From positions 1 to 15,652 of the forward strand of contig CBDVCR010000071.1 of the NCBI GenBank assembly GCA_965372535.1: a stretch of 15,652 nt of DNA, read 5' to 3'. Position numbers and translations under genes: made by a program. This stretch comes from an uncultured bacterium (lineage in GTDB: Bacteria; Nitrospirota; Thermodesulfovibrionia; Thermodesulfovibrionales; JdFR-86). Below are positions 1,065-15,652 of the stretch, in pieces. How positions within the stretch are numbered: the stretch's first letter is position 1; each line of letters begins with the position of its first letter. Below the pieces are notes generated by a model. It did no database searches, was not told where the DNA came from, and saw only the letters and a list, made by a program, of their open reading frames with translations.

Positions 1065-1067
1065 AAC

Positions 1068-2072: not shown

Positions 2073-2126
2073 CAGATTCTACCTCGCTTCATGCGTTGCG
2101 TTAAATGCTTCATAGCCCCAGGAACC

Positions 2127-2642
2127 CTATCCATGGCTCTCCTCCCGTCTGTCGAGCAAGTTGGCCTTTCTGAGCAGCATGTAAAGGTTCCGCTTCATCT
2201 CATCTTCCTTGACCCTGTTGATGGCCTCGCGGCACTCCGTATAGATGTCAAAGGAGACGAGAGCCATCTCCTCGACGATGGAATCCAGCCGTTCGAGCGC
2301 CCCGGCGTTTCCGACTGACCCCTCTTCGTACACCTCTTTTACGGCCTTTTTAAGAAGGAACGCGAATGACACGGCCCGGGAGGGAGGGAAGTCCTGTACA
2401 GCCCGCATCCTGACGAAAGGCTTAAGGCAGGCCGAGAGCCGCTCCGGGTCGGCCCCATCCTGGAGATCCCCAAGCACGGAATCCACCATTTCGGAAATGG
2501 CGTACCCAATTGGATTGGCGAAACGGTCTTTCTTTTTCCTGAGAAACGCTTCGGAGTCTGCGGGATAAGTCTCTACAATCAATTGATGCCATTTCCGGCG
2601 GATTTCCTCTTTGTTCAGGACTAAAAACTCTTTAAATTCCAA
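2127..2642 (-). CDS. RsbRD N-terminal domain-like small protein encoded between dsrC and dsrM
   Basis: 171-aa ORF MEFKEFLVLNKEEIRRKWHQLIVETYPADSEAFLRKKKDRFANPIGYAISE...; the pattern KEEIRRKWxxLIxETYP...FLxxxKDRFANPVGYxI resembles the RsbRD_N family commonly seen near dsrMK genes. Confidence 0.65.
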   Translation of the reverse strand: MEFKEFLVLNKEEIRRKWHQLIVETYPADSEAFLRKKKDRFANPIGYAISEMVDSVLGDLQDGADPERLSACLKPFVRMRAVQDFPPSRAVSFAFLLKKAVKEVYEEGSVGNAGALERLDSIVEEMALVSFDIYTECREAINRVKEDEMKRNLYMLLRKANLLDRREESHG

Positions 2643-2693
2643 TATCGAAACTCCTCCCCTTACCTTTTTCGAGCCGCGCGACCGCCAACGTAA

Positions 2694-2734
2694 GGCCGCG
2701 GATAAAGGCCGCGGTACGTCCTTTATCCGCGGCC
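2694..2734 (-). other. Perfect 15-bp inverted repeat (RNA hairpin) in the dsrC - RsbRD-like intergenic region
   Basis: GGCCGCGGATAAAGG (2694-2708) / CCTTTATCCGCGGCC (2720-2734), 11-nt loop, directly downstream of the dsrC stop; no following U-tract in the minus direction. Confidence 0.85.
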
Positions 2735-2750
2735 GTCAGTGCCCTGTGTC

Positions 2751-3086
2751 TTATACGCAACCCGTGGGCTTCGGAAGTCCCGCATACCTGCAGGCCTGCT
2801 TCGCAGGGCCGCCGGGATAGAGCTCGTAGAGGTACTTGGTGTTGCCCTTTTCGGGGCCCATCACCTTGCCTATCTCCTTGACGAGTATCTTGATCATCGG
2901 GGCAATCTGGTACTTCTCGTAGTATTCCCTGAGGAAGTTGATGACCTCCCAGTGGGCATCGGTCAGGCTAATGCTGTCCTCGTTGGCAAGCTCCTGGGCA
3001 AGTTCCTTGCTCCAGTCATCGAGGTCTACCAGATACCCGTCGTCATCGACTTCAATCTGCTTTCCCTGAAAATCCATTGTCGGCAT
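2751..3086 (-). CDS. dsrC: DsrC / TusE-family sulfur carrier protein with both conserved C-terminal cysteines
   Basis: 111-aa ORF ending ...GGPAKQACRYAGLPKPTGCV; C-x10-C-V C-terminal arm diagnostic of DsrC. AGGAGG-type SD upstream (cctcct at ~3093-3098 on + strand). Confidence 0.96.
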   Translation of the reverse strand: MPTMDFQGKQIEVDDDGYLVDLDDWSKELAQELANEDSISLTDAHWEVINFLREYYEKYQIAPMIKILVKEIGKVMGPEKGNTKYLYELYPGGPAKQACRYAGLPKPTGCV

Positions 3087-3308
3087 GTTGCGTCTCCTCC
3101 TTTTTATTTAATTGCCTTTGCCACGTGCGGAAATTCCTTCCCACGCACCCACCTACACTAATCCATCCCCTCCCTGAAATGTCAAGTCTGCGGTCATAAA
3201 AAGTAATACAGAGTGATAGCCGGGGTCAAATAAAAAATACTTATCAGCCTATCTATTTTAGTTAATATTCCTTTAATTTTCTTTTTCACGCACCTCTCGG
3301 AAACAGAC

Positions 3309-3340
3309 AAAAAAGCCGCCCGCGCAAGTGAAACCGCGGG
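3309..3340 (-). terminator. Probable Rho-independent terminator
   Basis: Minus-strand RNA: CCCGCG-gtttcacttg-CGCGGG-cggc-TTTTTT; a flanking GCCG (3352-3355) can additionally pair with the CGGC. Confidence 0.6.
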
Positions 3341-3346
3341 TTGACA

Positions 3347-3412
3347 TTAAACGGCAAAAGAGGCGCCCCCGGTATTCCCGCCTCTGAACCTCTTTGGAAA
3401 ATCGAAAACCAT
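3347..3412 (-). CDS. Candidate small ORF, 21 aa (MVFDFPKRFRGGNTGGASFAV)
   Basis: AGAGGAGGT Shine-Dalgarno about 9 nt upstream of ATG, followed by stop and the terminator-like hairpin at 3309-3340; lies downstream of the ggt-like gene in an otherwise unassigned gap. Confidence 0.35.
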   Translation of the reverse strand: MVFDFPKRFRGGNTGGASFAV

Positions 3413-3438
3413 ATGAAGTTTACCTCCTCTATAAACCT

Positions 3439-3460
3439 CCCTGCGGCAGAGACCGCAGGG
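3439..3460 (-). other. Hairpin upstream of the candidate small ORF
   Basis: Perfect CCCTGCGG-cagaga-CCGCAGGG inverted repeat (8-bp arms, 6-nt loop). Confidence 0.7.
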
Positions 3461-3523
3461 TATCCTGAAAAGGCAAGGAGTTGGCAACCCCGCGGCAAGA
3501 CCACGGGGAATGCACTGGTGCAT

Positions 3524-4942
3524 TCAATCGACCCTCATGAAATAGCCGCCCCTCCGGGTATCCCCCCACCCCTTGAGGTCCCCTGTCACGGCATGCACCC
3601 CGCCGAAGTAAACCTCTTTTTCCCGCCACGGGTTAAGAGGGTATTTCCCCCGGACAGCGCGCAGGGCGTCCTCGCCGAAGCCCGGCTCCAACTGCAGCAC
3701 CCCCTCGTCGTCCAGGTGCATCCTCGGGGCCTCGACCGCACGGGCCGCGTCCATCCCCCTGTCCAGGAGGTTATGGATAACCTGAAGCATCGCTGTCTTA
3801 ATCCTCTTGCTCCCGCCGCTTCCGAGCACCGAGTGGATTTCCCCGTCCTTCTTTATAATTGTGGGAGACATCATGGAGCCCACCCTCGCCCCAGGCACGG
3901 TGGTGAAGAACCCGTGGGGGAAGAGGTCGTCCTCGCCCATCATGTTGTTGAGCATGACACCCGTATCCCCGAGAAAATGCCCGGAGTTCGAGCCGTTTGA
4001 CGAGGTCATTGAGACGGCGTTCCCCGCCCCGTCCACCACGCTCACATGCGTGGTGCCCGCGGCCCCCTGCCTTTCCCTGTTCATCCTCGCCATGGTTTCC
4101 GCCAGCAGCAGGCAGGCCTCCGCCTCGTCCATCCGCTCAATCTCCTCATTTTTAAGAAGCGAGAAGGCCGTCTCAAGCAACGCGCCGCCGAAGGAGGGAG
4201 GGGGATTAAAAAGCATCTCAAACCCCCTGTACGCGCACGAAAGCGGCCTTCTCTTTCTCACTTCGTACTCCCGCAGGTCCCTTGCCGTAACGCGCCCGCC
4301 GCCAGGTCTTAACTGCTCCTCAAGCCGGTGGGCGCCGCTTCCGTAAAACGCGTCAATCCACGCATCGGGCGACCTCAAGCCCAGGAACTCACCAAACAGG
4401 GGGTTATAGAGCCTCCCGCCGCTTTCCTTGCCGCCGAAAATCTCCTTTCCATAGCCGGTAACCGTGAGGATGGGCAAGAGGATTTTAATGAGATAGCTCT
4501 GAAGCCCGTCTAACTCGACCCCCTGCTCAAGGTACCTGAGGGCCGGCCGTATGATGTCCCGGATGTCCATGGAGGCGAGCTCCCGGTGAAACCTTAAAAG
4601 CCCCTTGAGCATTCCAGGCGCCGCCACGGAGGCCGTGCCGATATGGAAGACCTGTACGGTGGACTTAAACCGTATCTCCACGGGTTCGAGCACGGGTGTT
4701 TCCGAAAAAGACGCCCCCCTGCCCGGTGCGTCCACGAAGAAATCATAGACCACGTCCTCGCCCCGGTCGGCGACATGGGCCATGAGAAACCCCCCGCCCC
4801 CGAGGCTTGAGAGGACGGGCTCCGCCACCACGGAGGCGAATCCCGCCGCAACAGCCGCGTCGAAGGCGTTTCCGCCCCTCCTGAACATCTCGCACGCCGC
4901 CCCGGTGGTAAGGGGATGCCCGGAAGCCGCCGCCCCTTTCAT
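3524..4942 (-). CDS. ggt: Gamma-glutamyltransferase family protein
   Basis: 472-aa ORF; GNAFDAAVAAGFASVVAEPVLSSLGGGGFL N-terminal signature, putative catalytic Thr in GTTHVSVVDGAGNAVSMTSSNG, GS..GGSKRIKTAMLQVI near the C terminus. Confidence 0.88.
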   Translation of the reverse strand: MKGAAASGHPLTTGAACEMFRRGGNAFDAAVAAGFASVVAEPVLSSLGGGGFLMAHVADRGEDVVYDFFVDAPGRGASFSETPVLEPVEIRFKSTVQVFHIGTASVAAPGMLKGLLRFHRELASMDIRDIIRPALRYLEQGVELDGLQSYLIKILLPILTVTGYGKEIFGGKESGGRLYNPLFGEFLGLRSPDAWIDAFYGSGAHRLEEQLRPGGGRVTARDLREYEVRKRRPLSCAYRGFEMLFNPPPSFGGALLETAFSLLKNEEIERMDEAEACLLLAETMARMNRERQGAAGTTHVSVVDGAGNAVSMTSSNGSNSGHFLGDTGVMLNNMMGEDDLFPHGFFTTVPGARVGSMMSPTIIKKDGEIHSVLGSGGSKRIKTAMLQVIHNLLDRGMDAARAVEAPRMHLDDEGVLQLEPGFGEDALRAVRGKYPLNPWREKEVYFGGVHAVTGDLKGWGDTRRGGYFMRVD

Positions 4943-5040
4943 CTACCGGCCGGTTAGTTTCTCAGCAGACATTGAATCCTTCCAAAGCCCCCTGCACTGG
5001 GATTCCGAGGCATTTACATGTCTGCTTGCCGGCGGTCCCG

Positions 5041-6153
5041 TCAGCAAGCGTAAAACCCCTCCCGGACGCAGGCTATCATGGACTTGAAATCCCTTTCCTC
5101 CCTGTATAGCCTTTGTTGGGCGTGAGCCCCGGTGCCGTTTTCAAGTATTTCCCCTATTGCACCCATGTACCCGAGCCCCCCGAGTTCTCCGGACTGCCGC
5201 TCTACCAGGTGTAAGAGTTCCTGTACCGCCTCCCGGATGGGGACCCTTTTTGCGGTCACGGGGTTTACGAATATCCCGTCAAGGCCGTAGCGCGCCGCCT
5301 GCCACTTGTTGGACCTCAATATCTGCATCTGCACCCTTGCCTCGGGGTGAAACTGCACGTTTGAAAGCGTGACCACAAGGGCCTGGATAAGCGCGGTAAG
5401 AGCCAGAATCTCGGCGTAACGGCAGGGCATATCACATACCCGTACCTCTACGGTGCCGAACTCCGGGTGCGGACGCACGTCCCACCAGAGGTCCTTTACG
5501 GACTCTATTATCCCTCCCATCTGAAGCAGCGAGGCCATGCGACAGAACTCGTCCCAGTTTTCGAGGGAATCCGGCAGGCCCGCAAGCGGCAGGGCCTCAA
5601 AGAGCTTTGTCCTGTAGGAGTAAAGCCCCGTGTCCTCGCCCAGGTAGAAAGGAGAGGAGGTGGAAACGGCAAGCAGGAGGGGCAGGTACATCCGGATAGT
5701 GTTGTTTATCCTTATTGCCCGCTCCGGAGAGTTGACCCCTATGTGCACATGCAAGCCCTGGCTTATAAACCTTCTGCCCACAAGCTGAAGGTCGTCCATA
5801 ACCCTGACGTATCGCGGGCTGCTGGTGACGTTTTCCGCCGAGCCCCCCTCGAAGGGGTGGAGGCTTGCGGAGTAGAAGACCGCGCCGAAGTTTTTTAATA
5901 GTCCCTCAAGGTAGGAGAGCGTACTCCGCAGGTCGGCGTCCACCTCCTTGACGTCGGCGCAGATACGGGTGTTTACCTCTATCATGGAACGGATGAACTC
6001 TTCCTTTATGCGGTCCGTATAGGCGGGGTCCATTGAAGACAGCACCTCGGGCGCGATGTTCTTAAACCAAAGAGTTCCGGCGTCCAGGAGCTGAAGCTCG
6101 AGTTCCACCCCGATGGTGGGCTCGGGGCTTGAGTTAAACCTTAACTCGGGCAC
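5041..6153 (-). CDS. ybdK: Carboxylate-amine ligase / glutamate-cysteine ligase type 2 (YbdK, GCS2 family); GTG start
   Basis: 370-aa ORF: TIGVELELQLLDAGTL, SLHPF, GLHVHIGV, FEVRVCDMPC-like segment (HPEFGTVEVRVCDMPC), C-terminal NKWQAARYGLDGI. Confidence 0.88.
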   Translation of the reverse strand: MPELRFNSSPEPTIGVELELQLLDAGTLWFKNIAPEVLSSMDPAYTDRIKEEFIRSMIEVNTRICADVKEVDADLRSTLSYLEGLLKNFGAVFYSASLHPFEGGSAENVTSSPRYVRVMDDLQLVGRRFISQGLHVHIGVNSPERAIRINNTIRMYLPLLLAVSTSSPFYLGEDTGLYSYRTKLFEALPLAGLPDSLENWDEFCRMASLLQMGGIIESVKDLWWDVRPHPEFGTVEVRVCDMPCRYAEILALTALIQALVVTLSNVQFHPEARVQMQILRSNKWQAARYGLDGIFVNPVTAKRVPIREAVQELLHLVERQSGELGGLGYMGAIGEILENGTGAHAQQRLYREERDFKSMIACVREGFYAC

Positions 6154-7330
6154 GTTTTTCCTTCAGGCTTTCGACGGCCCTCCTTACGGCGGCGTCGAAA
6201 AAGGCCGCACCGACGCGTATCACGTCCTCATCGAAGTTGAAGTTCGAGCTGTGGGCCGTGGCGGACTCCCCGCCCCTGCCCACTGCGCCGAAGCGTACGA
6301 AACAGCCGGGCACTTCCTTAAGATAGTAGGCGAAATCCTCCCCTCCCATGCTGGGCTTTACCAGGTTGATGAACTTCTCCCTGCCGAGCAGTCCCTCCGC
6401 CGCTTCCCGTGCGAGCAGGTAGCATTCGGGATGGTTAACCACCGGAGGGTAACCCTCGAAAATATTCACCTCAATCCTTGCGTCATGGAGCGATGCCATC
6501 CCCTCGGCGGTCTTCTGAATTCTTTTGAGCACGTCTTTTCTGGTCTTTCCATCGGTATTGCGTACTGTGCCCTTGAGGACGGCCTCGTCGGCCACCGCGT
6601 TGTAAACAGTGCCGGCATGGAGGCTCCCGACGGTTATCACCGTGGGGTTCAGGGGGTTGATGCTCCTTGAGATGATGTTCTGAAGGGCCATCACAAAAAG
6701 GCTCGCCACCACGACTGCGTCCACGGTTTCGTGGGGCCGGGCGGCGTGCCCCCCCCGTCCGAGTATCCTTATCTCGATGGCGTCGGTATAGGAGGAGTCC
6801 ACGTCCGTCCGTATGGCGATTTCTCCCAGTTTGAACGCGCCGTCGATATGTCCGCCGAATATCATGTCCACGCCGTCGAGCGCGCCCGCCTCTATCATGG
6901 AGCGTGCGCCTCCGCTTCCCTCCTCGGCGGGCTGAAAGAGCAGTACCACGTTGCCGGGCGGCGGGGATTTCCTGAGAAGCTCCGCGGCGCCGAGCACGAT
7001 GGCCACATGGCCGTCATGCCCGCAGGCGTGCATGTAGCCTTTTACCCTGGAGGCGTAGGGGAGACCTGTCTTCTCCTCGATGGGCAGGGCGTCCATGTCC
7101 GCCCTTAGGGCCACGGTGGGCGCCGGGGGACCGTGGTTGTCGATGCGGGCCACTATGCCGGTCTTTGCGATGCCGCGCCTGTAGGGGATGGAAAGCCTCT
7201 CCAGATACCTGGCGATGGCCTCGCCGGTCTTTTTCTCCTTGAAGGCGGGCTCGGGCCAGCGGTGAATTCTCCTCCTGAGACTCACAAGGCGTTTAAACGT
7301 CCTGTCGTCCATCAAGCGCTTAAAGGGCAT
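6134..7330 (-). CDS. M20-family (M20D-like) amidohydrolase / metallopeptidase
   Basis: LRRRIHRWPEPAFKEKKTGEAIARYL, LRADMDALPIEEKTGLPYAS...GYMHACGHDGHVA, FQPAEEGSGGARSMIEAG, GGHAARPHETVDAV, MGGEDFAYY. Start uncertain: the ORF track extends to a GTG at 7369; ATG at 7330 or 7312 fits the family start better. 3' end overlaps the ybdK start by 20 nt. Confidence 0.87.
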   Translation of the reverse strand: MPFKRLMDDRTFKRLVSLRRRIHRWPEPAFKEKKTGEAIARYLERLSIPYRRGIAKTGIVARIDNHGPPAPTVALRADMDALPIEEKTGLPYASRVKGYMHACGHDGHVAIVLGAAELLRKSPPPGNVVLLFQPAEEGSGGARSMIEAGALDGVDMIFGGHIDGAFKLGEIAIRTDVDSSYTDAIEIRILGRGGHAARPHETVDAVVVASLFVMALQNIISRSINPLNPTVITVGSLHAGTVYNAVADEAVLKGTVRNTDGKTRKDVLKRIQKTAEGMASLHDARIEVNIFEGYPPVVNHPECYLLAREAAEGLLGREKFINLVKPSMGGEDFAYYLKEVPGCFVRFGAVGRGGESATAHSSNFNFDEDVIRVGAAFFDAAVRRAVESLKEKRARVKV

Positions 7331-7442
7331 AATAAATTTTAGCACATGCGGGGGGATTAAAAGAGGCACGCGCAGGTTTACCCGCAGCCGTCAATGCATT
7401 GCAAAAATACAAAATATTTGCCCGTAAACCGGTTGAATCATT

Positions 7443-7448
7443 TATAAT
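7443..7448 (+). promoter_or_regulatory. Possible -10 box (TATAAT) upstream of the rhodanese gene
   Basis: Exact TATAAT 23 nt before the TTG start codon; only a weak -35-like TTGCCC at 7418-7423 with a 19-nt spacer. Confidence 0.35.
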
Positions 7449-7470
7449 ATGATGATGGGGAGGTAGCCGG

Positions 7471-8299
7471 TTGGGCCTTTTCGACATATTCGGAAACATC
7501 AGGACCATCAGCGTTGAGGAGGCGCGCAAGAAGCTCGAAGCCTCGAATAACGGAGAAGTGGCCCTCCTCGACGTCCGGGAGCCCAAGGAATACGCCCAGG
7601 GCCACATCAAGGGCGCGCGGCTCATGCCCCTGAGCCAGCTGGTGCAAAGGACAGAGGAACTCGACCCCTCAAGGCCCGCCATCGTTTACTGCCGCGTGGG
7701 CAGGCGCAGCGGGCCCGCCGCCTCGATACTCGGAAATTCCGGCATGAGCTCCGCGATAAGCCTCGAAGGGGGCATCGAGGCATGGAACGGAAACACTTTC
7801 TCATGCGGCATGGAGCCGGGCGTGTTCCCGCTCGACGGGAAAGACCCCGTGGAGGAGTTGCTCTCCGTCGCCTGGGCGCTTGAGGGCGGCACGTGCGAGT
7901 TTTACGAAAACGTAAGGGAAACCCTCAAGGACAATGAGGCCGGAGTGGTCTTCGGCGCCCTTATAAACAGCGAGCGGAAGCATAAGGACACCCTTAATAG
8001 AGGCATACGGAAAATACTCGACAGACGCCGGCGAGAGCGCAATAAAGGAATCTTCCGGAGCGTTCCTCAAAAGCGGAGCAAACCTTGAGAAAGCCCTCGG
8101 ATGGCTCGGGGCGCCGGAAAGGACAGCCCTGGACATACTGGAACTCTGTCTCCAGCTTGAGGCGAACGCCCTTGACCTTTACATGAAAATCATCCGGCGC
8201 ATCGACGAACCGGCCACAAAAGACGCGCTCAACCAGGTGCTGGAGGAGGAAAAAACACACCTGATGAGCATCGGGAAACTCCTGCAGAGCGTGCTTTAG
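7471..8299 (+). pseudogene. Rhodanese domain fused to rubrerythrin/ferritin-like domain, interrupted by an apparent +1 frameshift near 7996; TTG start
   Basis: Frame 1 (7471..8088): rhodanese VALLDVREPKEYAQGHIKGARLMPL...IVYCRVGRRSG, then ALEGGTCEFYENVRETLKDNEAGVVFGALINSERKHKDTL. The conserved continuation is in another frame from 7997: IEAYGKYSTDAGESAIKESSGAFL...LCLQLEANALDLYMKIIRRIDEPATKDALNQVLEEEKTHLMSIGKLLQSVL, stop at 8297-8299. GGGAGG SD precedes TTG. Confidence 0.8.
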
Positions 8300-8311
8300 C
8301 CCGGCTTTCTC

Positions 8312-9481
8312 TTACCCCCCTTTTTCGGGCGCGTACCGAAACACCGCGGCCAGCGGCGCATCCACCGGCATTTTTTCGCGGGCAACAGCGTAAACAGTCC
8401 CGCGGTTTAGAAGCGTTCGGACCGCGGCCAGGTCCAGGAGGTCCTCCTTTTCAGGACCTTCTTCGGGTTCAAGGCTCACCGTGTCTGTTTCGGGGTCGTA
8501 TCTGCCCCACTCTTGCTCGCCAGAAGCGGCAAACAGCACATCTACACTTCCGGCGGAAGCGGCCGGGACAACGACGTTTATGTCCGTAGAAGCATGCCCG
8601 GTGCCCAGAAGCTCCCTGCAGCGCGCCGCAGCCTCCTCGCGGGCCTTGAGAAAAAGGGGCTCCACCACGGCCCATGCCTCCTTGTGCAGACGTTCCGCGC
8701 CCGCCCTTTCCGGGTTGCCCGCCACCCCCCTGTCAACGAGATAGGGGTATGTGTTCGCCTCCCGGTATATCGCGTTGATATACTCGACGCCCGCCAGGAC
8801 CAGGAACGAGTGTTCTTCCTTGAGAAGTTCGTGCAGGCCCCTGTCTACATGGCGGCAGAATCTCAGTACAGCGTCCTTTTCGTCATCCACGCCGACACCG
8901 TGGCCGTGGAACATGGCGGGCCGCTGCCGCATTCCCCCTCCCGTGCCCGTATGAAACTGGAGCTGTTTCTGAGGGTCGTCGTATTTCAGGGCGTCGGCAA
9001 GGCTTTTCGGTACGTCTTTAAGAGACGCCTCGGCCATGCTGTATCGGGAGCCCTGAAACAACCTGACCCCGTTCTGGCTTAGCGCAAGGAGATAGAATCG
9101 CCCGTCCCCGCTGAACAGGGGGAGCAGCGGCTTGAGGTGGAAACGCCGGCCCGGGACAAGCAGTTCTTCAAAGCTCATGGGAAGACGGTAACGGCGGAAT
9201 TCCCCGGCCGAGGCGAACACGGCCAGCCCATCGCTCCTGTGCTCCCAGAAATCCCTGTCGCCCAACAGCATGTGGCCGGGCCTCAGCATCTCTCCGGCCT
9301 CGGCGGAGCGGAGGCCGCCTTCCAGCAGAAGCCCTTCGGCCCGCGAGAGCAGATTTTTGAACCTTACCGGGTCCTGCTCCGCCCCGCCGCCCGTCCTGTG
9401 CGTGGGCATGTAAATCGATATGCATCGGCCGCCGCTTCCTCCCGCAAGCGCCCTCAGGTCATTGATTCCCAGCATATCCAT
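8312..9481 (-). CDS. Probable bacterial archaeo-eukaryotic release factor (baeRF, eRF1-like) family protein
   Basis: 389-aa ORF: CISIYMPTHRTGGGAEQDPVRFKNLLSRAEGLL, RPGHMLLGDRDFWEHRSDGLAVFASAGEFRRYRLP, VPGRRFHLKPLLPLFSGDGRFYLLALSQNGVRLFQGSRYSM, C-terminal LNRGTVYAVAREKMPVDAPLAAVFRY. Confidence 0.75.
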   Translation of the reverse strand: MDMLGINDLRALAGGSGGRCISIYMPTHRTGGGAEQDPVRFKNLLSRAEGLLLEGGLRSAEAGEMLRPGHMLLGDRDFWEHRSDGLAVFASAGEFRRYRLPMSFEELLVPGRRFHLKPLLPLFSGDGRFYLLALSQNGVRLFQGSRYSMAEASLKDVPKSLADALKYDDPQKQLQFHTGTGGGMRQRPAMFHGHGVGVDDEKDAVLRFCRHVDRGLHELLKEEHSFLVLAGVEYINAIYREANTYPYLVDRGVAGNPERAGAERLHKEAWAVVEPLFLKAREEAAARCRELLGTGHASTDINVVVPAASAGSVDVLFAASGEQEWGRYDPETDTVSLEPEEGPEKEDLLDLAAVRTLLNRGTVYAVAREKMPVDAPLAAVFRYAPEKGG

Positions 9482-9683
9482 AATCCGCCCGCCCTTCCGC
9501 TCGATAACAGCACTGTCTTTTCTAACTCTATCACCTTTTAAGCAACTTTATAAGCACCCGCCAGCAGCGGTGTCCTCCGGAGCAAATGCCACGCCAGACT
9601 CATAACCCGGATATTGCACGAGTCCGGTTTGCCTCGGACGCAAGGCGCGCGGGACGCGAAGGAGGACATCCATGATAAGTAAA

Positions 9684-9710
9684 CGAGCATCGCACCTTGC
9701 GCGGTGCTCG
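9684..9710. other. 10-bp hairpin in the divergent intergenic region upstream of the motor-like operon
   Basis: CGAGCATCGC-accttgc-GCGGTGCTCG, fully paired with one G-U wobble. Confidence 0.65.
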
Positions 9711-9719
9711 TCTTCGCGG

Positions 9720-9757
9720 GCGGGGCATCTCTGTCAATCACTGCTTGAGCGCCCCGC
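9720..9757. other. 7-bp G+C inverted repeat, 24-nt loop
   Basis: GCGGGGC (9720-9726) / GCCCCGC (9751-9757). Confidence 0.45.
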
Positions 9758-9848
9758 GCTCTGAGGCGACCTCTCACTGACGGAAAACGGCGCCGTCTCG
9801 ATGTTTGCTGCAGGGGGCCGAGGCATATTTTTTTTACCTCGATAGATT

Positions 9849-9857
9849 TGTTATACT
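9849..9857 (+). promoter_or_regulatory. Possible extended -10 promoter element for the motor-like operon
   Basis: TGtTATACT at 9849-9857, 26 nt before the ATG at 9884; no convincing -35, which is common for extended -10 promoters. Confidence 0.4.
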
Positions 9858-9883
9858 TATTCATCTTACTTAAGGAGTTTCGA

Positions 9884-11275
9884 ATGTCCCGGTTAAAACT
9901 CATAGGTTCAGCTCTGACGGTATGCGCTCTGGTGCTGATGCGGCCCGCTCCCGGTGCGGCGATAAGCGAAACGAGCGACGAATATTCCTTCAAAATCACT
10001 GTCGAAACCCACCTCGGGGAGCACCTCAAGTCCGTGCTCACGGACATCGCCGGCTCCGACGACATCATCGTCATAGTCAACGCGGAGGTGGAAACCGACA
10101 AGAAGAGCAAGAAGAAAAAGCGTAAAAAACCCCAGGGCCTCGTGCTTCCCGGCGTCCCGGTTAAGAAGGAAATCGGCAAGAGCGCGGACGAGGCAATGGC
10201 CATTGCAAGCATGGTGCGGAGGCTTGAGGTGGAAATCCTGGTGGACAACGACATTTCCGAGTCCCTCACCCAACTCGCCCACGACATCGCCATCTCCGTC
10301 ATCGGATACGACCCCGACCGGGGCGACAGGCTCACCATCAGGCGAATTGAGTTCGGAAACAAGGGATTTAAGTGGGCCTCGATGTTTTACCCGCCCCACC
10401 TGTACTGGCTTGTTACGCTTATAGCGGGCGGCTTCTTCCTGGTGTCGGCGGCCATGTTCTTCATGGACCCGTTCAAGAAACTGCCGCCCGCCGTGGGAAA
10501 CGTAAACTGGGACGTCATACTCAAGAACCCGGAGAATAAGATGTTCGGCGGAGGCCCGGCAGGCGCGCCGGCAGCGGCCCGGACAGCCAAGGCGGAAACC
10601 ATGGCCGGCAGCGGCGACCCGTTGCCCTTCGGGTTCATAAAAGACGGCCACGTCCCCGACCTGGCCTTCCTGCTTTCGGAAAGCCCTGCCGGGGACATCG
10701 CCATCGTGGCCAACTACCTGGAGCCGGACCTCTCCGCAGGGCTTCTTGAGTCCTTCCCCCCGGAGACCTATGCCGAGGTCGTACTCAAGCTTAAGGACAC
10801 CGCCGAGGCCGGCCCCGAAAGGGTGAAAGCCCTGGAGGAGTCCATCAGGGAGCGCCTGGACTACGTGGTGGGCGGCGACGACAAACTTGCTTCCGTCCTC
10901 AACCTTGCCGAGGGCGAGGTCAGGGACAAGGTGCTCCAAAAGCTCGAAGAGGAGGACCCGGAGGCCGTCGCCCGCCTGAGGCCGAAGATAAAGACCTTCG
11001 AGTCCATGCTGAGGTCCATGAAGCCCAATGTCCTTCAGGCCCTTTTCAGGCAGCTCGACACCACGGTGTTCGCCCGCGTCCTGAAGTCCTCCTCGGCCGA
11101 CATACAGACCAGGGTGCTGGAGTCGCTGAGCGAAGGGGCCGCCGAACTCCTGCGGGAGGAGATGGAACTGAGCCGTCCCCTGAGCGCCGCGCGCCTTAAG
11201 AAGGAAAAGCAGAACATCGCGGCCACCGTCATGCGGATGGCGAGTGTGGGCGTCATAGAGGAGGAAGACATCTGA
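9884..11275 (+). CDS. FliG-like protein with an N-terminal signal/TM and FliF-like periplasmic segment (FliF-FliG-type fusion)
   Basis: AAGGAG SD then ATG at 9884 (ORF track starts at an upstream TTG). Signal-like MSRLKLIGSALTVCALVLMRPAPGAA; FliF-like VRRLEVEILVDNDISESLTQLAHDIAISVIGYDPDRGDRLTIRRIEF; TM HLYWLVTLIAGGFFLVSAAMFF; C-terminal FliG-like LRSMKPNVLQALFRQLDTTVFARVLKSSSADIQTRVLESLSEGAAELLREEMELSRPLSAARLKKEKQNIAATVMRMASVGVI. Confidence 0.8.
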   Translation: MSRLKLIGSALTVCALVLMRPAPGAAISETSDEYSFKITVETHLGEHLKSVLTDIAGSDDIIVIVNAEVETDKKSKKKKRKKPQGLVLPGVPVKKEIGKSADEAMAIASMVRRLEVEILVDNDISESLTQLAHDIAISVIGYDPDRGDRLTIRRIEFGNKGFKWASMFYPPHLYWLVTLIAGGFFLVSAAMFFMDPFKKLPPAVGNVNWDVILKNPENKMFGGGPAGAPAAARTAKAETMAGSGDPLPFGFIKDGHVPDLAFLLSESPAGDIAIVANYLEPDLSAGLLESFPPETYAEVVLKLKDTAEAGPERVKALEESIRERLDYVVGGDDKLASVLNLAEGEVRDKVLQKLEEEDPEAVARLRPKIKTFESMLRSMKPNVLQALFRQLDTTVFARVLKSSSADIQTRVLESLSEGAAELLREEMELSRPLSAARLKKEKQNIAATVMRMASVGVIEEEDI

Positions 11276-11276
11276 G

Positions 11277-12059
11277 ATGGACTTTATGACCGTTTTCGGC
11301 CTTCTGATGGGCGGCGCGACCATGTTCTTCGTCATGGCCGAGGGGAATATCCTGAACATGATAATCAACCCCCTGGCTTTCATCCTGGTGTTCGGAGGCA
11401 CTTTCAGCGCCACGCTCATCTCCTATCCCTGGGACATCGTAAGGCGGATAATCCCTTCCCTGAAAACGATGTTCGTAAAAACCGGAAACGGCAGCGAGCA
11501 CCGGGAGGACCTCATAGAGCAGATTACCAGGCTGGCCGAGAAGGCCCGCCGCCAGAATATCGAGAGCCTTCAGGAGGACGTGGCTTCCATAAACGACGGT
11601 TTTCTGGCCTACGGCATCCAGATGGTGCTGGACGGCCTCGAGCACGAAGTCGTGAAGGACAACCTGGAAAAGGAGATACTTTTCACTCAGCGCTCCCGGC
11701 GCAAGGTCAGCGACGCGTTCCGCACCATGGCCACCTTAGCGCCCATTTTCGGGCTGCTGGGGACCCTCATCGGCGTGGTGCAGGTGCTCAGGAACCTCTC
11801 GGACCCCACCAGCATGGGCGAGGCCATGGCCATCGCCATAACCACCACCTTCTACGGCATTTTCGCGGCCAATTTTCTCTTTCTGCCCGCCGCCATAAAG
11901 CTCAACGAGAACAACGAAGACGAAGTGATGAACTGGCAGATTGCGGCCGAGGGCATATTGTCCATCCAGCAGGGCGACCTCCCGCTGATAGTGAGGAAAA
12001 AACTCAACGCTTTCCTGCTTAAAAGCCTCGGCCGCGAAGGTGGGACCCGAAAAGACTGA
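11277..12059 (+). CDS. motA: MotA-family stator / ion channel protein
   Basis: 260-aa ORF: NPLAFILVFGGTFSATLISYP, FRTMATLAPIFGLLGTLIGVVQVLRNLSDPTSMGEAMAIAITTTFYGIFAANFLFLPAAIKL, typical MotA TM3-TM4 signature with both prolines. Confidence 0.93.
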   Translation: MDFMTVFGLLMGGATMFFVMAEGNILNMIINPLAFILVFGGTFSATLISYPWDIVRRIIPSLKTMFVKTGNGSEHREDLIEQITRLAEKARRQNIESLQEDVASINDGFLAYGIQMVLDGLEHEVVKDNLEKEILFTQRSRRKVSDAFRTMATLAPIFGLLGTLIGVVQVLRNLSDPTSMGEAMAIAITTTFYGIFAANFLFLPAAIKLNENNEDEVMNWQIAAEGILSIQQGDLPLIVRKKLNAFLLKSLGREGGTRKD

Positions 12060-12724
12060 TGAAGCTGTTCATCCCGGAAAACAGGAGGCGTGGGGGCGCG
12101 CTTTGGCTTGTCATATTTTCCGACCTTTCGACGAACCTCATGCTCTTTTTCCTTATTCTCTTCGCCATGACCAGGATGAGTGCCGCCGAGCGCGAGACGG
12201 TGATAGAGGGCATGCAGCGGGCGACCTCCAACCAGGCCGCCCTTGAGGAGCGGGCTTTGAAAAAACAGAAGGAAAAAAACGCCATAAGGACGCTCGAGGA
12301 CACCATTGCCTACGGCAGGCTGAAGAAATACACGAACCTCTCCGTGGGCGACGATAAAATCAAGCTGACCATAGAACTGCCGTTTTTCTTCGCCACCGGG
12401 AGCGCGGAAATCAACGCCGCCGCCCGTCCGGCCCTCAAAAGCCTCGTGATCCCCATTAAAGAGTTCCCCAACGACATAATCATAGAGGGCCATACCGACA
12501 ACGTGCCCATGACTGCGGGCCACAGGTACGGCTCGAACTGGGAGCTCTCGGTGGCCCGCGCCGTCAGCGTTATAAACTTCTTCAAGGAAAAGGGGGTCAA
12601 CCCCGCAAAGCTGGTCTCGGGCGGCTACGGGGAGTACCACCCGGCGTTTCCGAACGACACCCCCCGGAACAGGGCGAAAAACAGGCGCATAGAAATCACC
12701 ATTCTCCGGCAACCTGCGGTGTAG
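12059..12724 (+). CDS. motB: MotB-like / OmpA-domain stator protein with conserved TM aspartate
   Basis: WLVIFSDLSTNLMLFFLILFAM TM with Asp; OmpA-like domain IIIEGHTDNVPMTAGHRYGSNWELSVARAVSVINFFKEKGVNPAKLVSGGYGEYHP...NRAKNRRIEITI. Start ATG overlaps the motA TGA. Confidence 0.9.
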   Translation: MKLFIPENRRRGGALWLVIFSDLSTNLMLFFLILFAMTRMSAAERETVIEGMQRATSNQAALEERALKKQKEKNAIRTLEDTIAYGRLKKYTNLSVGDDKIKLTIELPFFFATGSAEINAAARPALKSLVIPIKEFPNDIIIEGHTDNVPMTAGHRYGSNWELSVARAVSVINFFKEKGVNPAKLVSGGYGEYHPAFPNDTPRNRAKNRRIEITILRQPAV

Positions 12725-12730
12725 GGCAAA

Positions 12731-13381
12731 GTGGCGCTCCACCGAAAAGTACTCAACATCCTCGTAGGGGGAAGGCCGGAGCCCATGAGCTGGCTGCTCC
12801 CCCACAGCACCCTTATGCTCGTCCTGATGATACTGTTCGTGGCCCTGTTCAGTTACTCCTACCTGAACTCGGTCGAGTACGAGTCCGCCCTTGTAGACCT
12901 GGAGACGCCGAAGGCCGAGTTGAGCCCTTCCAAAAGGGAAATCCACCTCGCCAAGAGCATCAGGAAGTTCATCGAAGACATGGGCATGGAGGGCGTCGCC
13001 AGCGTTAACGTGACTCCCCACGCCATAAAGCTCAAGCTTTCAAGCCCCGTGATGTTCGAAAGCGGGAGCGCCGAGCTTACGCCCTTCATCATGCCCATGC
13101 TTGTGGAACTCCTCAGGCACCTGAGGGACATGGAAAACACCATAATCGTGGAGGGACACACCGACAACGTGCCCATACACAGCGCCCTTTACCGCTCCAA
13201 CTGGGAGCTCTCGGCCGCAAGGGCCTTCAGCATAATATATTTTTATATAAAGAGAGACATCGAGCCGGAACGCCTCATCGCCCACGGCTACGGAGAGCAC
13301 AGGCCGTTTTACTCCAACGAGAGCGAGTTCGGGCGCGCCATGAACCGGCGGATAGAGATAACAATCGTAAGGGGAGGATAA
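12731..13381 (+). CDS. Second MotB-like / OmpA-domain protein, apparently lacking the TM aspartate; GTG start
   Basis: WLLPHSTLMLVLMILFVALFSYSYLN TM; OmpA-like domain FESGSAELTPFIMPMLVELLRHLRDMENTIIVEGHTDNVPIHSALYRSNWELSAARAFSIIYFYIKRDIEPERLIAHGYGEHRPF...GRAMNRRIEITIVRGG. Confidence 0.88.
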   Translation: MALHRKVLNILVGGRPEPMSWLLPHSTLMLVLMILFVALFSYSYLNSVEYESALVDLETPKAELSPSKREIHLAKSIRKFIEDMGMEGVASVNVTPHAIKLKLSSPVMFESGSAELTPFIMPMLVELLRHLRDMENTIIVEGHTDNVPIHSALYRSNWELSAARAFSIIYFYIKRDIEPERLIAHGYGEHRPFYSNESEFGRAMNRRIEITIVRGG

Positions 13382-13382
13382 A

Positions 13383-14684
13383 GTGAAGGCAGCACTTGCA
13401 GCCGTATTAACAATGCTCCTGCTTTCCTGGGCGGCGCCGGCCGCCACGGCCCGGGAGACAGGGGGAAAAGCCGGGAAGGCGCGGGACATGGCCGTGAGCC
13501 TCTTCAACCAGGGCAAATACGAGGAGGCCCTTCCACTGTTGAAAGAGATTCTCTCGGAAAACCCCGACGACAAGGTCGCACAGAGGTACCTGCTTATTTA
13601 CAATCAGCAGGTCGTCGAGCCCTACTGCAGGCAGGCGGCCCAGTCCTACTTTGCCGGAGACTACCCTTCCGCGGTCACCCAGTGGGAGAAAATCCTCCGG
13701 ATAAACCCCAACGACATGCGCGTCCGGAAGCTCCTGGACAGGACGATTACCGTCTCCAACCAGGAAGCCCTGGACTCCCTCTACTCCAACGTGACCACGC
13801 TTATGAAGGACAGTAGATACGCCCTGGCAGCGGGCGAACTCGAAAAAATCCTCCAGATAAGGCCCCTTGAGCAGCGGGCGCATGAACTGCTGTCCATAGT
13901 GCGCCGCACCCTTACGGACAGCGCCGTTAAAGAGCTATACGAAAAAGCCAACCAGTATTTCGAGCAGAAGGAATACGACCTCGCCATCGAGCAGTGGCGG
14001 AAGATACTGGAGGTAGACCCGGGCCAGGACCTGGCCTCCCGGCAGATTGCCACCGTGCACCGCCGAAAGCTCGACAAGATGTACACCACAGCCGAACGGC
14101 TCTACCTCGAAGGCGACCTCGCCGCCTCCCGCGACCTCTACAGCAATATTCTTTCCGAAAACCCCACCGACCTTTCCATTAAAAAAACCATAGACCGCCT
14201 CAACGGGACGATAAACATCGTGCCCAGGCTTACTGAGGAGGGGAAGGTCTGGGACGTGCTCAGAAAGGGCGTCGCCCACCACGTCTCGGAGGACGGAAAC
14301 CCCAGGGTGGCCGTTGCCGCCGCCTGGTATGCCGTGCAGCTTGAGCCGGAAAACGCCACGATACTGGCGCTCATGGACCACATGGAGCGGGAAAACTTCG
14401 CCGTCGTCCGCACAATGGCGCCCCCGGTGGACGAGATGAACGTCGTGGACCAGTACCTTTTCACCGCCCTCAACAACATCTACGAGGGCCGCTACGACCT
14501 GGCCGTCCAGGAGTGCGGGATTGTGCTCGAACTCGAGCCGGAAAACATCCTGGCCATGAAGCGCCTGGGCTCGGCCTACTACGCCCTCGGCAGAGCGGGC
14601 AAGGCCAAGAAAGCCTGGCAGAAGGCGCTCAGGCTCTCGCCCAACGACAGCGAACTCAAGGGCTTCATAAAACAGCTCCGGTAA
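13383..14684 (+). CDS. Exported TPR-repeat protein; GTG start
   Basis: Signal-like MKAALAAVLTMLLLSWAAPAATA; repeated TPR units (FNQGKYEEALPLLKEILSENPDD, YFAGDYPSAVTQWEKILRINPND, YFEQKEYDLAIEQWRKILEVDPG, IYEGRYDLAVQECGIVLELEPENILAMKRLGSAYYALGRAGKAKKAWQKALRLSPND). GGAGG SD. Confidence 0.88.
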   Translation: MKAALAAVLTMLLLSWAAPAATARETGGKAGKARDMAVSLFNQGKYEEALPLLKEILSENPDDKVAQRYLLIYNQQVVEPYCRQAAQSYFAGDYPSAVTQWEKILRINPNDMRVRKLLDRTITVSNQEALDSLYSNVTTLMKDSRYALAAGELEKILQIRPLEQRAHELLSIVRRTLTDSAVKELYEKANQYFEQKEYDLAIEQWRKILEVDPGQDLASRQIATVHRRKLDKMYTTAERLYLEGDLAASRDLYSNILSENPTDLSIKKTIDRLNGTINIVPRLTEEGKVWDVLRKGVAHHVSEDGNPRVAVAAAWYAVQLEPENATILALMDHMERENFAVVRTMAPPVDEMNVVDQYLFTALNNIYEGRYDLAVQECGIVLELEPENILAMKRLGSAYYALGRAGKAKKAWQKALRLSPNDSELKGFIKQLR

Positions 14685-14874
14685 GGGGCTCGCCGCCCAG
14701 GAGGTCGATTTCCGCGACGCCGATTTCAAGGAGGGTTTCAGCGAGCTTTTCAAAATCCCCGATTTCGATATCCGCATGTGCCTCTACTCCCCGGGTAAAG
14801 CAGAAACCGCACGCCCGGTCGCAGCGCAGGGTGGGGTAGAGCTGGACGAAACGGGGCCTGCCGGGCGTTGTCAT
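14685..14874 (-). pseudogene. Truncated N-terminal fragment of a radical SAM protein
   Basis: Minus-strand MTTPGRPRFVQLYPTLRCDRACGFCFTRGVEAHADIEIGDFEKLAETLLEIGVAEIDLLGGEP: CxxxCxxC cluster motif and GGEP motif, then reading frame runs into the end of the TPR gene and stops at 14665; rest of the protein is absent. Confidence 0.72.
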
Positions 14875-14899
14875 GTGTTATTATCGTGAAAGGCATCGC

Positions 14900-14935
14900 A
14901 AAAAGTAAAAGGGTTGCGGGAGCAACCCGCAACCC
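14900..14935 (-). terminator. Strong stem-loop with T-rich tail (Rho-independent terminator, minus direction)
   Basis: GGGTTGCGGG (14911-14920) agcaa CCCGCAACCC (14926-14935), perfect 10-bp stem; on the minus strand followed by TTTTACTTTTT. Confidence 0.7.
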
Positions 14936-14946
14936 CTTGATATCTT

Positions 14947-15060
14947 ATGGTGGCGCTGAGCGGGCTCAAGGAACTCTTGAACCACAAGACGCTGAATATG
15001 ACTCTCTGATATGCTTATCCGGCTCCGAGCCACAAGGTCAAGTGTGGGGGTGCTGAATTA
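14947..15060 (+). pseudogene. Remnant of a tyrosine recombinase / phage integrase C-terminus
   Basis: Plus-frame reading: MVALSGLKELLNHKTLNMTL*YAYPAPSHKVKCGGAEL, resembling the family box xLLGHKTLxMTLRYAHLxPxHK with the Arg codon as TGA; upstream frame is closed. Confidence 0.72.
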
Positions 15061-15073
15061 TGTATAATTTTAC

Positions 15074-15652
15074 ATGAAGGAAATTACTCTATATGGTCCA
15101 TATTCAATTGTAAGTTCTGATCATGACATACTTTCTGATTGCCCATACTCTCAAAAGGCGGGGATATATTTGTGGGCTGTGAAAATGTTTTCAAATTATT
15201 TCAGAGTAACATACATCGGAGAGACCGGTACTTCATTTTATAAAAGAACCAAAGAGCATGTAATTCAAACGTTGGGGGGTAATTATCAAATATGTGATCC
15301 CGATGCAATGCAAAGAGGTGAATCTATAGTTGTATGGAATGGTTTATGGAGAAAAGGTTATAGGGACAAGTTTCCTGAGTTTTTGAGAAGATATGAGGGT
15401 ATTGCTACAGTGATAAAAGGTGCTCTCAGTGTCCAAAATATCTTTGTAGCTCCTATGGATGTGGATTCAAGGACACGTAAGCGTATCGAAGGTGCTTTAG
15501 CCTTTGCTGTAAGAAATAATAAAGATGCATCGTCTTTGCTTCCCAAAGACATTCGATACTTCAAGAATAAAGAAGATGAGAGTCCAATCGCTATAAGCAT
15601 CGAAGCACAATCGAAAATTGAAGGGCTGCCAAGGCAAATAATATGTGTGTAA
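15074..15652 (+). CDS. GIY-YIG domain protein
   Basis: 192-aa complete ORF: QKAGIYLWAVKMFSNYFRVTYIGETGTSFYKRTKEHVIQTLGGNY; GIY ... YIG spacing and downstream SFYKRxKEH typical of the GIY-YIG fold. Markedly lower GC than the rest of the window. TATAAT at 15063-15068 lies only 5 nt before the ATG. Confidence 0.75.
   Translation: MKEITLYGPYSIVSSDHDILSDCPYSQKAGIYLWAVKMFSNYFRVTYIGETGTSFYKRTKEHVIQTLGGNYQICDPDAMQRGESIVVWNGLWRKGYRDKFPEFLRRYEGIATVIKGALSVQNIFVAPMDVDSRTRKRIEGALAFAVRNNKDASSLLPKDIRYFKNKEDESPIAISIEAQSKIEGLPRQIICV

Follow-up and report, generated by a model that had tools for sequence, protein, structure and literature searches.

A conserved MotB paralogue without the ion-binding aspartate, encoded beside a canonical-site MotB and a single MotA in Nitrospirota

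Two tandem paralogues of the flagellar stator protein MotB are encoded behind a single MotA on a contig from an uncultured bacterium of the Nitrospirota (Thermodesulfovibrionales, JdFR-86; GenBank assembly GCA_965372535.1, contig CBDVCR010000071.1). The stretch analysed comprises positions 1–15652 of this contig (15,652 nucleotides; hereafter, the window). The first paralogue, MotB-1 (B1), keeps the ion-binding aspartate in its transmembrane (TM) helix, and the second, MotB-2 (B2), has threonine in the same column. Loss of the aspartate is a conserved trait of MotB-2, and the genes belong to a five-gene cassette whose other members encode a fusion of FliF- and FliG-like domains (hereafter, FG) and a periplasmic tetratricopeptide repeat (TPR) protein. 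The arrangement suggests, tentatively, a stator in which one MotA pentamer would enclose two non-identical B subunits.

MotB-1 and MotB-2 differ at the ion-binding site

MotB-1 (12059–12724, forward strand; 221 amino acids, aa) comprises a TM helix, a plug and an OmpA-like domain. MotB-2 (12731–13381, forward strand; 216 aa, GTG start) has a TM helix, a plug-like segment and an OmpA-like domain. The two proteins are 34% identical, in agreement with the tandem MotB paralogues that a first-pass annotation, made from the sequence of the window without database searches, had placed at 12059–13381. The ATG of MotB-1 overlaps the motA stop codon at 12059, and a gap of 6 nt separates MotB-1 from MotB-2. 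Matches to Pfam MotB_plug score 41.5 bits for MotB-1 and 25.9 bits for MotB-2 (cutoff 24) and those to Pfam OmpA 64.8 and 61.9 bits, respectively; hydropathy indicates one hydrophobic segment in each protein. The peptidoglycan-binding motifs EGHTDNVP, SNWELS.ARA and NRRIEITI are found in both, the first and last having already been recognized together with a full OmpA-like domain in the first-pass annotation.

In phmmer alignments to solved stator B subunits, the segment ‘WLVIFSD’ of MotB-1 falls on ‘WLATFSD’ of C. sporogenes and ‘WLVPYAD’ of B. subtilis, with Asp on Asp; the same columns are occupied in MotB-2 by ‘WLLPHST’, with Thr on Asp. Alignment to 6ysf and 6ysl thus assigns Asp22 of MotB-1 (W16+6; codon 12122–12124, forward strand) as the equivalent of E. 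coli MotB D32 and places Thr27 of MotB-2 (W21+6; codon 12809–12811, forward strand) in the catalytic-Asp column. Both residues lie six positions after the tryptophan (W+6), so the proposal of one B protein with and one without the ion-binding Asp holds, as does the further remark that the MotB-2 helix is free of acidic residues (zero Asp or Glu).

The best NCBIfam match of both proteins is MotD PRK09038, at 132 bits for MotB-1 and 142 bits for MotB-2, below the cutoff of 283, and none of the curated equivalog cutoffs of NCBIfam MotB, MotD, MotS and PomB is reached by either. Because the invariant TM Asp is missing in MotB-2 and in 119 of 120 homologues of its clade, MotB-2 is a MotB-derived, Asp-less paralogue that is not to be filed as a canonical MotB.

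Translation from the GTG at 12731 yields a 20-aa cytoplasmic tail that aligns with the N-termini of homologues. An alternative in-frame ATG lies at 12785, and the whole TM helix would still be retained from there; at least one database homologue (P0001, 198 aa) is recorded from the position of this ATG, leaving the MotB-2 start ambiguous. The 216-aa sequence itself is absent from the protein collection searched.

Loss of the aspartate is a family trait of MotB-2

Homologues of MotB-2 were collected from a search of 5.8 billion proteins, and the best 120 (47–97% identity) were aligned with MAFFT. The close relatives that carry names come from Nitrospirota/Thermodesulfovibrionales metagenome-assembled genomes (MAGs). 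The Asp column holds Thr in 111 of the 120 sequences, Ala in 6, Asn in 2 and Asp in 1; recurrence across this range of identities puts the Thr state far beyond chance. Thr is likewise found in the B2 of 18 of 19 readable cassette loci. An acidic residue occurs in the helix of only 5 of 117 members of the B2 clade, at its periplasmic end (W+21). The loss is therefore conserved in the second protein, the point for which the first-pass annotation had proposed aligning homologues, and is not an isolated mutation. That it might nonetheless be one, or reflect a pseudogene or an assembly artefact, could be argued from the single Asp-bearing clade member (P0016, see below) and from the Elusimicrobiota orthologues, all of which have Asp. 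This explanation has a negligible probability and is ruled out by the intact open reading frame, the conserved domains and the recurrence of Thr in homologues from independent samples and across the cassette loci.

Column entropies give a similar picture of constraint. The N-terminal half of the MotB-2 TM helix (‘WLLPHSTLML’, 12791–12820, forward strand; family consensus WMLPYSTLML) has a mean column entropy of 0.40 bits, compared with 0.38–0.42 bits for the peptidoglycan-binding motifs, 1.91 bits for the linker and 2.63 bits for the cytoplasmic tail. These ten residues, which surround the lost Asp, show the strongest conservation in MotB-2, level with the peptidoglycan-binding motifs. Within it, the Ser-Thr pair at W+5 and W+6 is present at 91% (Ser) and 92% (Thr) in the clade, and a plug-like ‘S-V-E-Y-E-x-A’ segment is kept in the protein.

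This pattern bears on whether MotB-2 might stand outside the MotA pentamer, as a membrane-anchored peptidoglycan clamp or scaffold resembling MotY or PflA/PflB that, with the TPR protein, would position the stator or tether a FliF-like ring. The full OmpA-like domain with its peptidoglycan-binding motifs and the constant co-encoding of a periplasmic TPR protein would suit such a role; moreover, Vibrio has accessory peptidoglycan-binding stator partners, and MotY matches MotB-2 weakly. On the other hand, a passive anchor helix should vary, yet no part of MotB-2 is better conserved than the N-terminal half of its TM helix; the plug signature of MotB persists, the Elusimicrobiota orthologues have a canonical ‘PYADLM’ channel motif, and a rotating ring cannot carry a peptidoglycan-fixed protein. 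On this evidence a role wholly outside the pentamer appears improbable, and the suggestion in the first-pass annotation that MotB-2 acts only as a clamp is weakened by the conserved helix and the plug-like segment.

The conserved Ser-Thr pair raises a further possibility, namely that MotB-2 still conducts by other chemistry, for example through the hydroxyls of Ser26 and Thr27 coordinating Na+ or a water wire. Thr residues join in Na+ coordination in PomA. Against this, the W+6 position also accepts Ala and Asn, the polar residue one turn above has become Leu in 100 of 117 sequences, the helix has no acidic residue, and all functional members of the MotB/ExbD/TolR family known to us depend on the carboxylate. 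Conduction of this kind is very unlikely.

Origin of the aspartate loss

The same cassette recurs in the genomic context of distant members of the FG family (loci L023 and L027). When the second MotB of L023 was used as the seed of a protein search, 120 relatives were returned, the named ones all being from Elusimicrobiota. Asp is present in all 120 of these B2 orthologues, within the motif ‘WM[VI]PYADLM’, and three long Elusimicrobiota-type contigs (L025, L026 and L027) have the complete cassette, in which each of the two B genes encodes the Asp. In a neighbour-joining tree, B1 of Nitrospirota groups with B1 of Elusimicrobiota and B2 with B2, which places the B1/B2 duplication before the split of the cassette lineages. 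The Thr state of B2 is thus derived in Nitrospirota, with Asp ancestral. Since Elusimicrobiota have Asp in both paralogues and the duplication preceded the split, B2 descends from a genuine channel-forming B subunit. The first-pass annotation had reasoned that homologues of the second protein with Asp would reduce the loss to an isolated mutation; such homologues do exist in Elusimicrobiota, but the conclusion does not follow, as the derived state is fixed across the sampled Nitrospirota.

The substitutions in B2 are coordinated. At W+5 Ala is replaced by Ser, at W+6 Asp by Thr, and at W+9 Ser or Thr (117 of 117) by Leu (the 100 of 117 mentioned above), such that the polar residue one helical turn above the Asp was lost together with it and the remaining helix positions were kept. 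B2 neither decayed nor sped up after the loss: B2 and B1 show within-clade identities of 49% and 50%, respectively, and identities of 38% and 36% across the two phyla. The MotA channel helices are the same in Nitrospirota and Elusimicrobiota, with no change that tracks the B2 Asp loss, as expected if MotA still serves an Asp-bearing B1.

An ancestral Asp in both paralogues would also fit alternative stators sharing an A subunit. In such a scheme two complexes would form on one MotA: an active MotA5:B1₂ and a non-conducting, non-rotating MotA5:B2₂ that docks peptidoglycan and the rotor-like protein as a brake, placeholder or structural spacer. For AglRQ and AglRS, too, the formation of separate channels is considered possible (PMC9389320), and conservation of the B2 helix and plug would be expected as well if B2 must still fit MotA. 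However, a dedicated inert unit so tightly translation-coupled to the active one would be less economical, and the evolution of B2 was not relaxed after the supposed loss of its catalytic role. The joint loss of the Asp and the polar residue above it, with the other helix positions kept, looks more like tuning of a shared site than inactivation. We consider the formation of two separate complexes unlikely, although it is the chief rival of the heterodimer described below.

A conserved five-gene cassette outside flagellar loci

The first-pass annotation missed that the locus is a non-standard one: the paralogues are part of a conserved cassette in the order FG fusion, MotA, MotB-1, MotB-2 and TPR protein, with the genes overlapping or nearly abutting at their stop and start codons. 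Two sources supplied the genomic context: long contigs bearing MotB-2 homologues, and 185,579 species genomes scanned for the pattern WMLP[YF]S[TA]LM. The scan returned 17 loci, all from Nitrospirota MAGs except for one labelled ‘bacterium’. Overall, the cassette was seen in about 20 Nitrospirota loci and 4 Elusimicrobiota-type loci, with the same gene order at every locus with enough flank and a single motA linked to both motB genes at each. Across 7–10 kb of the window and of loci L001, L002, L004 and L025–L027, no flagellar genes were seen, and the flanks vary between loci. The conserved cassette and the non-flagellar flanks together rule out an ordinary flagellar motAB locus. Beyond the five genes, conserved neighbours are confined to subclade-specific blocks, none of which is shared with the window, and a promoter scan upstream of the cassette gave no signal above shuffles.

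Two such blocks were observed. In a Nitrospirota subclade, a gene for an RCC1-repeat/Lcl_C protein precedes the cassette and multihaem-cytochrome-like genes follow it (L001 5279–6859; L004 5018–6658 and 12027–15194; L002 1–4132); neither kind of gene is present in the window. The Elusimicrobiota-type contigs share a convergent downstream block (L025 11937–20660, L026 11551–20645, L027 12798–17500) encoding an unknown protein of ~640 aa, a FecR-domain protein, a CARDB-like protein and a giant (>5000 aa) fn3/beta-helix/Kelch protein, with identities of 32–58% across the three loci. This block is absent from the Nitrospirota loci and may be a functional partner or only synteny. In the cassettes of L014 and L019, tblastn hits are split and frames are shifted in several genes, most likely from assembly indel errors rather than pseudogene formation.

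Partner proteins in the cassette

MotA (11277–12059, forward strand; 260 aa) is a flagellar-type stator A subunit with Pfam MotA_N and MotA_ExbB matches and is the sole A subunit of the cassette. Its bit scores are 160 against Paenibacillus MotA1 and 132 against PomA, but only 15.9 against TolQ. The protein has four TM helices, a MotA_ExbB domain, the TM3/TM4 prolines and a charged cytoplasmic loop. Equivalents of E. coli P173, P222 and R90 are kept (LAPIFG, FLP and AEKARR are conserved), and the E98 equivalent is variable. Its NCBIfam score of 173 bits falls below the cutoff of 340, and a curated NCBIfam equivalog score is reached by none of the five cassette proteins.

At the Nitrospirota loci, MotB-1 orthologues are described by the motif WL[IV]IF[SA]D[LMI][ST]TNLMLFFL. 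The Asp is kept in every readable B1 among 19 Nitrospirota loci, in one of which (L019) B1 is frameshifted at the site, and in four Elusimicrobiota-type loci (L023, L025, L026 and L027). A separate feature of this helix is a conserved Asn at Asp+4 (SD[LMI][ST]TN), found in both phyla and corresponding to Asn26 of the window protein (12134–12136); the Asp+4 column is Leu in the solved MotBs aligned (C. sporogenes, B. subtilis).

The first cassette gene (9884–11275, forward strand; 463 aa; alternative TTG start at 9848) encodes FG, a rotor-like fusion in which a domain resembling the FliF S-ring region is joined through a TM helix to the middle and C-terminal domains of FliG. Pfam matches are to YscJ_FliF_C, FliG_M (39 bits) and FliG_C (65.5 bits). 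From the N-terminus, the layout consists of a signal or anchor helix, a periplasmic domain resembling the FliF RBM3/collar (aa ~31–155), a TM helix (aa 172–195), a disordered linker and the two FliG domains. An AlphaFold2 model has a mean pLDDT (predicted local distance difference test) score of 75.6, with the FliG middle and C-terminal part well predicted. The periplasmic domain is modelled as an alpha-beta-beta-alpha-beta fold with a low-confidence insertion between beta1 and beta2. Foldseek searches with the model returned structures of the FliG middle and C-terminal domains at E ~1e-9, and for the periplasmic part the FliF RBM3/collar of the S-ring (6sd1, 8z5v, 8z4d; E 4e-5 to 7e-4, target TM-score ~0.6). 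A Lys-rich low-complexity run at aa 72–108 (window 10097–10207; KKSKKKKRKKPQG) is followed by a family-invariant L-P-G-V-P motif; this region sits where FliF RBM3 has its beta-collar insertion and is modelled with low confidence.

Several parts of the flagellar counterparts were looked for in FG and returned no match. There is no FliG_N domain, the FliF-like domain and TM helix being fused directly in its place; RBM1 and RBM2 of FliF, which house the export gate, are absent from a periplasmic part of ~145 aa that holds one RBM-like unit; and the FliM-binding motif EHPQR is lacking, with ‘ESPAG’ where T. maritima FliG has ‘EHPQ-’ and no conservation of the motif in the family consensus. FG scores 74 bits against TIGR00207 (FliG), whose cutoff is 226.7. 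In the torque helix, SL[ST]xGAAERL[KQ][EQ]EM, Gly invariably takes the place of R281 and Glu that of D289. Of the two charge pairs, MotA R90 with FliG D289 is therefore kept on both partners and E98 with R281 is lost on both, a pattern that fits a real interface between MotA and the fusion without proving one.

An exhaustive profile search with the FG family showed it to be large: at E<=1e-30 it recovered 285 cluster representatives (50% identity), and the 150 best all match over their full length. The taxa recovered are Nitrospirota, Elusimicrobiota/Endomicrobiales and one doubtful archaeal label, the latter attached to a member (P0430, cluster of P0271) named ‘Thermoprotei archaeon’ on a 4.9-kb contig that is probably a mis-binned bacterial one. 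Long-form relatives of FG are encoded in L028 (8001–10019; 672 aa) and L029 (2813–5017; 734 aa). These loci have no adjacent motA or motB and were set aside as uninformative on B2; the L028 gene adjoins a TPR gene, a Roadblock/LC7 gene and type-IX-secretion-type genes.

The last cassette gene (13383–14684, forward strand; 433 aa) encodes the periplasmic TPR protein, which has Pfam TPR family matches and a signal peptide or N-terminal hydrophobic segment. It is the fifth gene in all loci, with a length of ~433 aa in Nitrospirota and ~290 aa in Elusimicrobiota. Among PDB entries it matches only designed or generic TPR proteins.

A putative one-site heterodimeric stator

The reading to which we give most weight, with a confidence that stops somewhat short of an even chance, is that one B1 and one B2 form a heterodimer inside MotA5, leaving a single protonatable site; the first-pass annotation had raised such a heterodimer as one of two options. 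B1 and B2 would serve as differing B subunits in one ion-driven stator, with the single MotA as its base, and the cassette would be a self-contained module in which FG serves as the membrane-anchored, rotor-like partner. Within the MotA pentamer, surrounding one B1 helix and one B2 helix, Asp22 of B1 would be the only protonatable site. B2 would supply a permanently neutral helix, in effect a built-in protonation mimic, together with a plug and a second peptidoglycan-binding domain. Ion flow through B1 would turn MotA5, which would push on the FliG-like torque helix of FG; the neutral B2 helix would not block rotation, and five instead of ten ions would be consumed per turn. We infer in the same way the 5:1:1 stoichiometry, the rotation, the formation of a ring by FG and the independence from the flagellum.

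Genomic and sequence patterns point in this direction. The single motA is invariably accompanied by both motB genes, in a constant order and with their stop and start codons overlapping or nearly abutting, and the residues that replace the Asp at W+6 are only neutral ones (Thr, Ala or Asn), with no compensating acidic residue. Asn is the classical protonation mimic, as in D22N (PMC9389320). In the Santiveri model, as cited in PMC9389320, a charged site is unable to pass a hydrophobic patch on MotA, for which reason a neutral B2 helix would not be expected to obstruct rotation. The cytoplasmic tails of the two B proteins also differ in Nitrospirota, being acidic in B2 (mean charge -3.1, n=114) and neutral to basic in B1 (+0.6, n=18). 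The descent of B2 from an Asp-bearing subunit, its undiminished constraint, the unchanged MotA channel helices and the retained R90–D289 pair count in favour of this reading as well.

Several points weigh against the heterodimer. The tail-charge asymmetry is inconsistent among the few Elusimicrobiota sequences. P0016 (L005 11–670, on a contig of 770 bp) is the sole Asp-bearing MotB-2 of the Nitrospirota clade, with ‘WLLPYSDFMT’; it is also the only member of that clade with Thr at W+9 and nests within the Thr clade in the neighbour-joining tree. Its Asp could have been either retained or regained by reversion. A MotA5:B2₂ complex of its own would lead one to expect the B2 helix to be conserved just as well. 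Moreover, E. coli MotB D32 mutants are dominant-negative, which is compatible with non-functional mixed dimers in the canonical stator. Finally, a site that is always neutral could, under some 5:2 models, bring the rotor to a halt instead of freeing it (PMC9389320).

On a broader scale, the cassette could conceivably be a stand-alone, flagellum-independent rotary machine, in which an FG ring is driven by a natural B1:B2-heterodimer stator towards a non-filament output, possibly an envelope or surface-protein function. This wider proposal is rather doubtful.

Other genes in the window

A divergent gene upstream of the cassette (8312–9481, reverse strand) encodes a protein of the bacterial archaeo-eukaryotic release factor family 7 (baeRF), which also has a match, short of the cutoff, to the model of the AOC03_06830-type ribosome hibernation factor. 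Consecutive genes for a gamma-glutamyltranspeptidase, a GCS2/YbdK carboxylate-amine ligase and an M20 amidohydrolase (3524–7369, reverse strand) may form a gamma-glutamyl peptide metabolism cluster. On the other side of the cassette, a 69-aa open reading frame (14665–14874, reverse strand; MTTPGRPRFVQLYPTLRCDRACGFCFTRG...) overlaps the 3' end of the TPR gene by 20 nt and resembles a radical-SAM N-terminus (CxxxCxxC), probably as what is left of a former gene. Beside it lie a promoter-like site (14909–14880, minus strand) and a 13-bp GC hairpin (14908–14938).

Discussion

The flagellar stators MotA5MotB2 and PomA5PomB2 (6ykm, 6ysf, 6ysl, 8brd/8bri) share with the cassette a flagellar-type MotA and B proteins composed of a TM helix, a plug and an OmpA-like domain, with the Asp of B1 at W+6. 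The cassette differs in having two different B genes per A gene, one of them Asp-less, whereas the flagellar B subunit is homodimeric with two Asp residues; in addition, its rotor-like partner is a FliF/FliG fusion and not a C-ring, and no flagellar genes are nearby. Neutral residues in the Asp column have precedent in MotB D32N and C. jejuni MotB D22N (PMC9389320), and Asn is a natural variant in the B2 clade. Those substitutions, however, are laboratory mutations that affect both chains of a homodimer and abolish function, whereas the neutrality of B2 is natural, conserved and restricted to one of two paralogues.

The AglR-AglQ-AglS gliding motor of Myxococcus xanthus likewise combines one A-type subunit with two paralogous B-type subunits in a non-flagellar use. 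Whether AglQ and AglS form hetero- or homodimers has been left undecided in the literature (PMC9389320). Both are TolR-like and have the Asp, in contrast to the MotB-like B proteins of the cassette, which have OmpA domains, include one Asp-less member and are co-encoded with a FliG-like rotor partner. Extra peptidoglycan-binding or TPR proteins surround the stator in Vibrio (MotX/MotY) and Campylobacter (PflA/PflB), a likeness to the periplasmic TPR protein encoded by the fifth cassette gene. That protein shows only generic TPR similarity, with no demonstrated homology to PflA/PflB, and MotY, unlike MotB-2, is not known to have a TM helix or a plug.

Engineered FliF-FliG fusions of Salmonella and Vibrio (8z4d/8z4g; PMC10941966, PMC11481574) similarly place the FliF S-ring region and FliG on one polypeptide. 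FG is natural and much smaller, with an RBM3/collar-like domain, one TM helix and only the middle and C-terminal domains of FliG. The FG fusion family is undescribed as far as literature searches show, and the full-text literature searched (including PMC12505986, PMC9389320, PMC12704724 and PMC12199754) yielded an account neither of a TM-anchored MotB paralogue lacking the Asp nor of the five-gene cassette. A survey has reported rotor proteins without filaments in 11% of non-motile species and posed their role as a question (PMC12199754).

In current 5:2 models of ion-driven motors, the two Asp sites are taken to be equivalent and each turn to consume ten ions. An Asp-less B2 would be a surprising finding for stator specialists. 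If the heterodimer reading is true, such a stator, natural and conserved, with the Asp in one B subunit and a neutral residue in the other, would help to test whether one site suffices and what role the second helix has, with the Asp/Asp pair of Elusimicrobiota and the Asp/Thr pair of Nitrospirota available as matched natural constructs.

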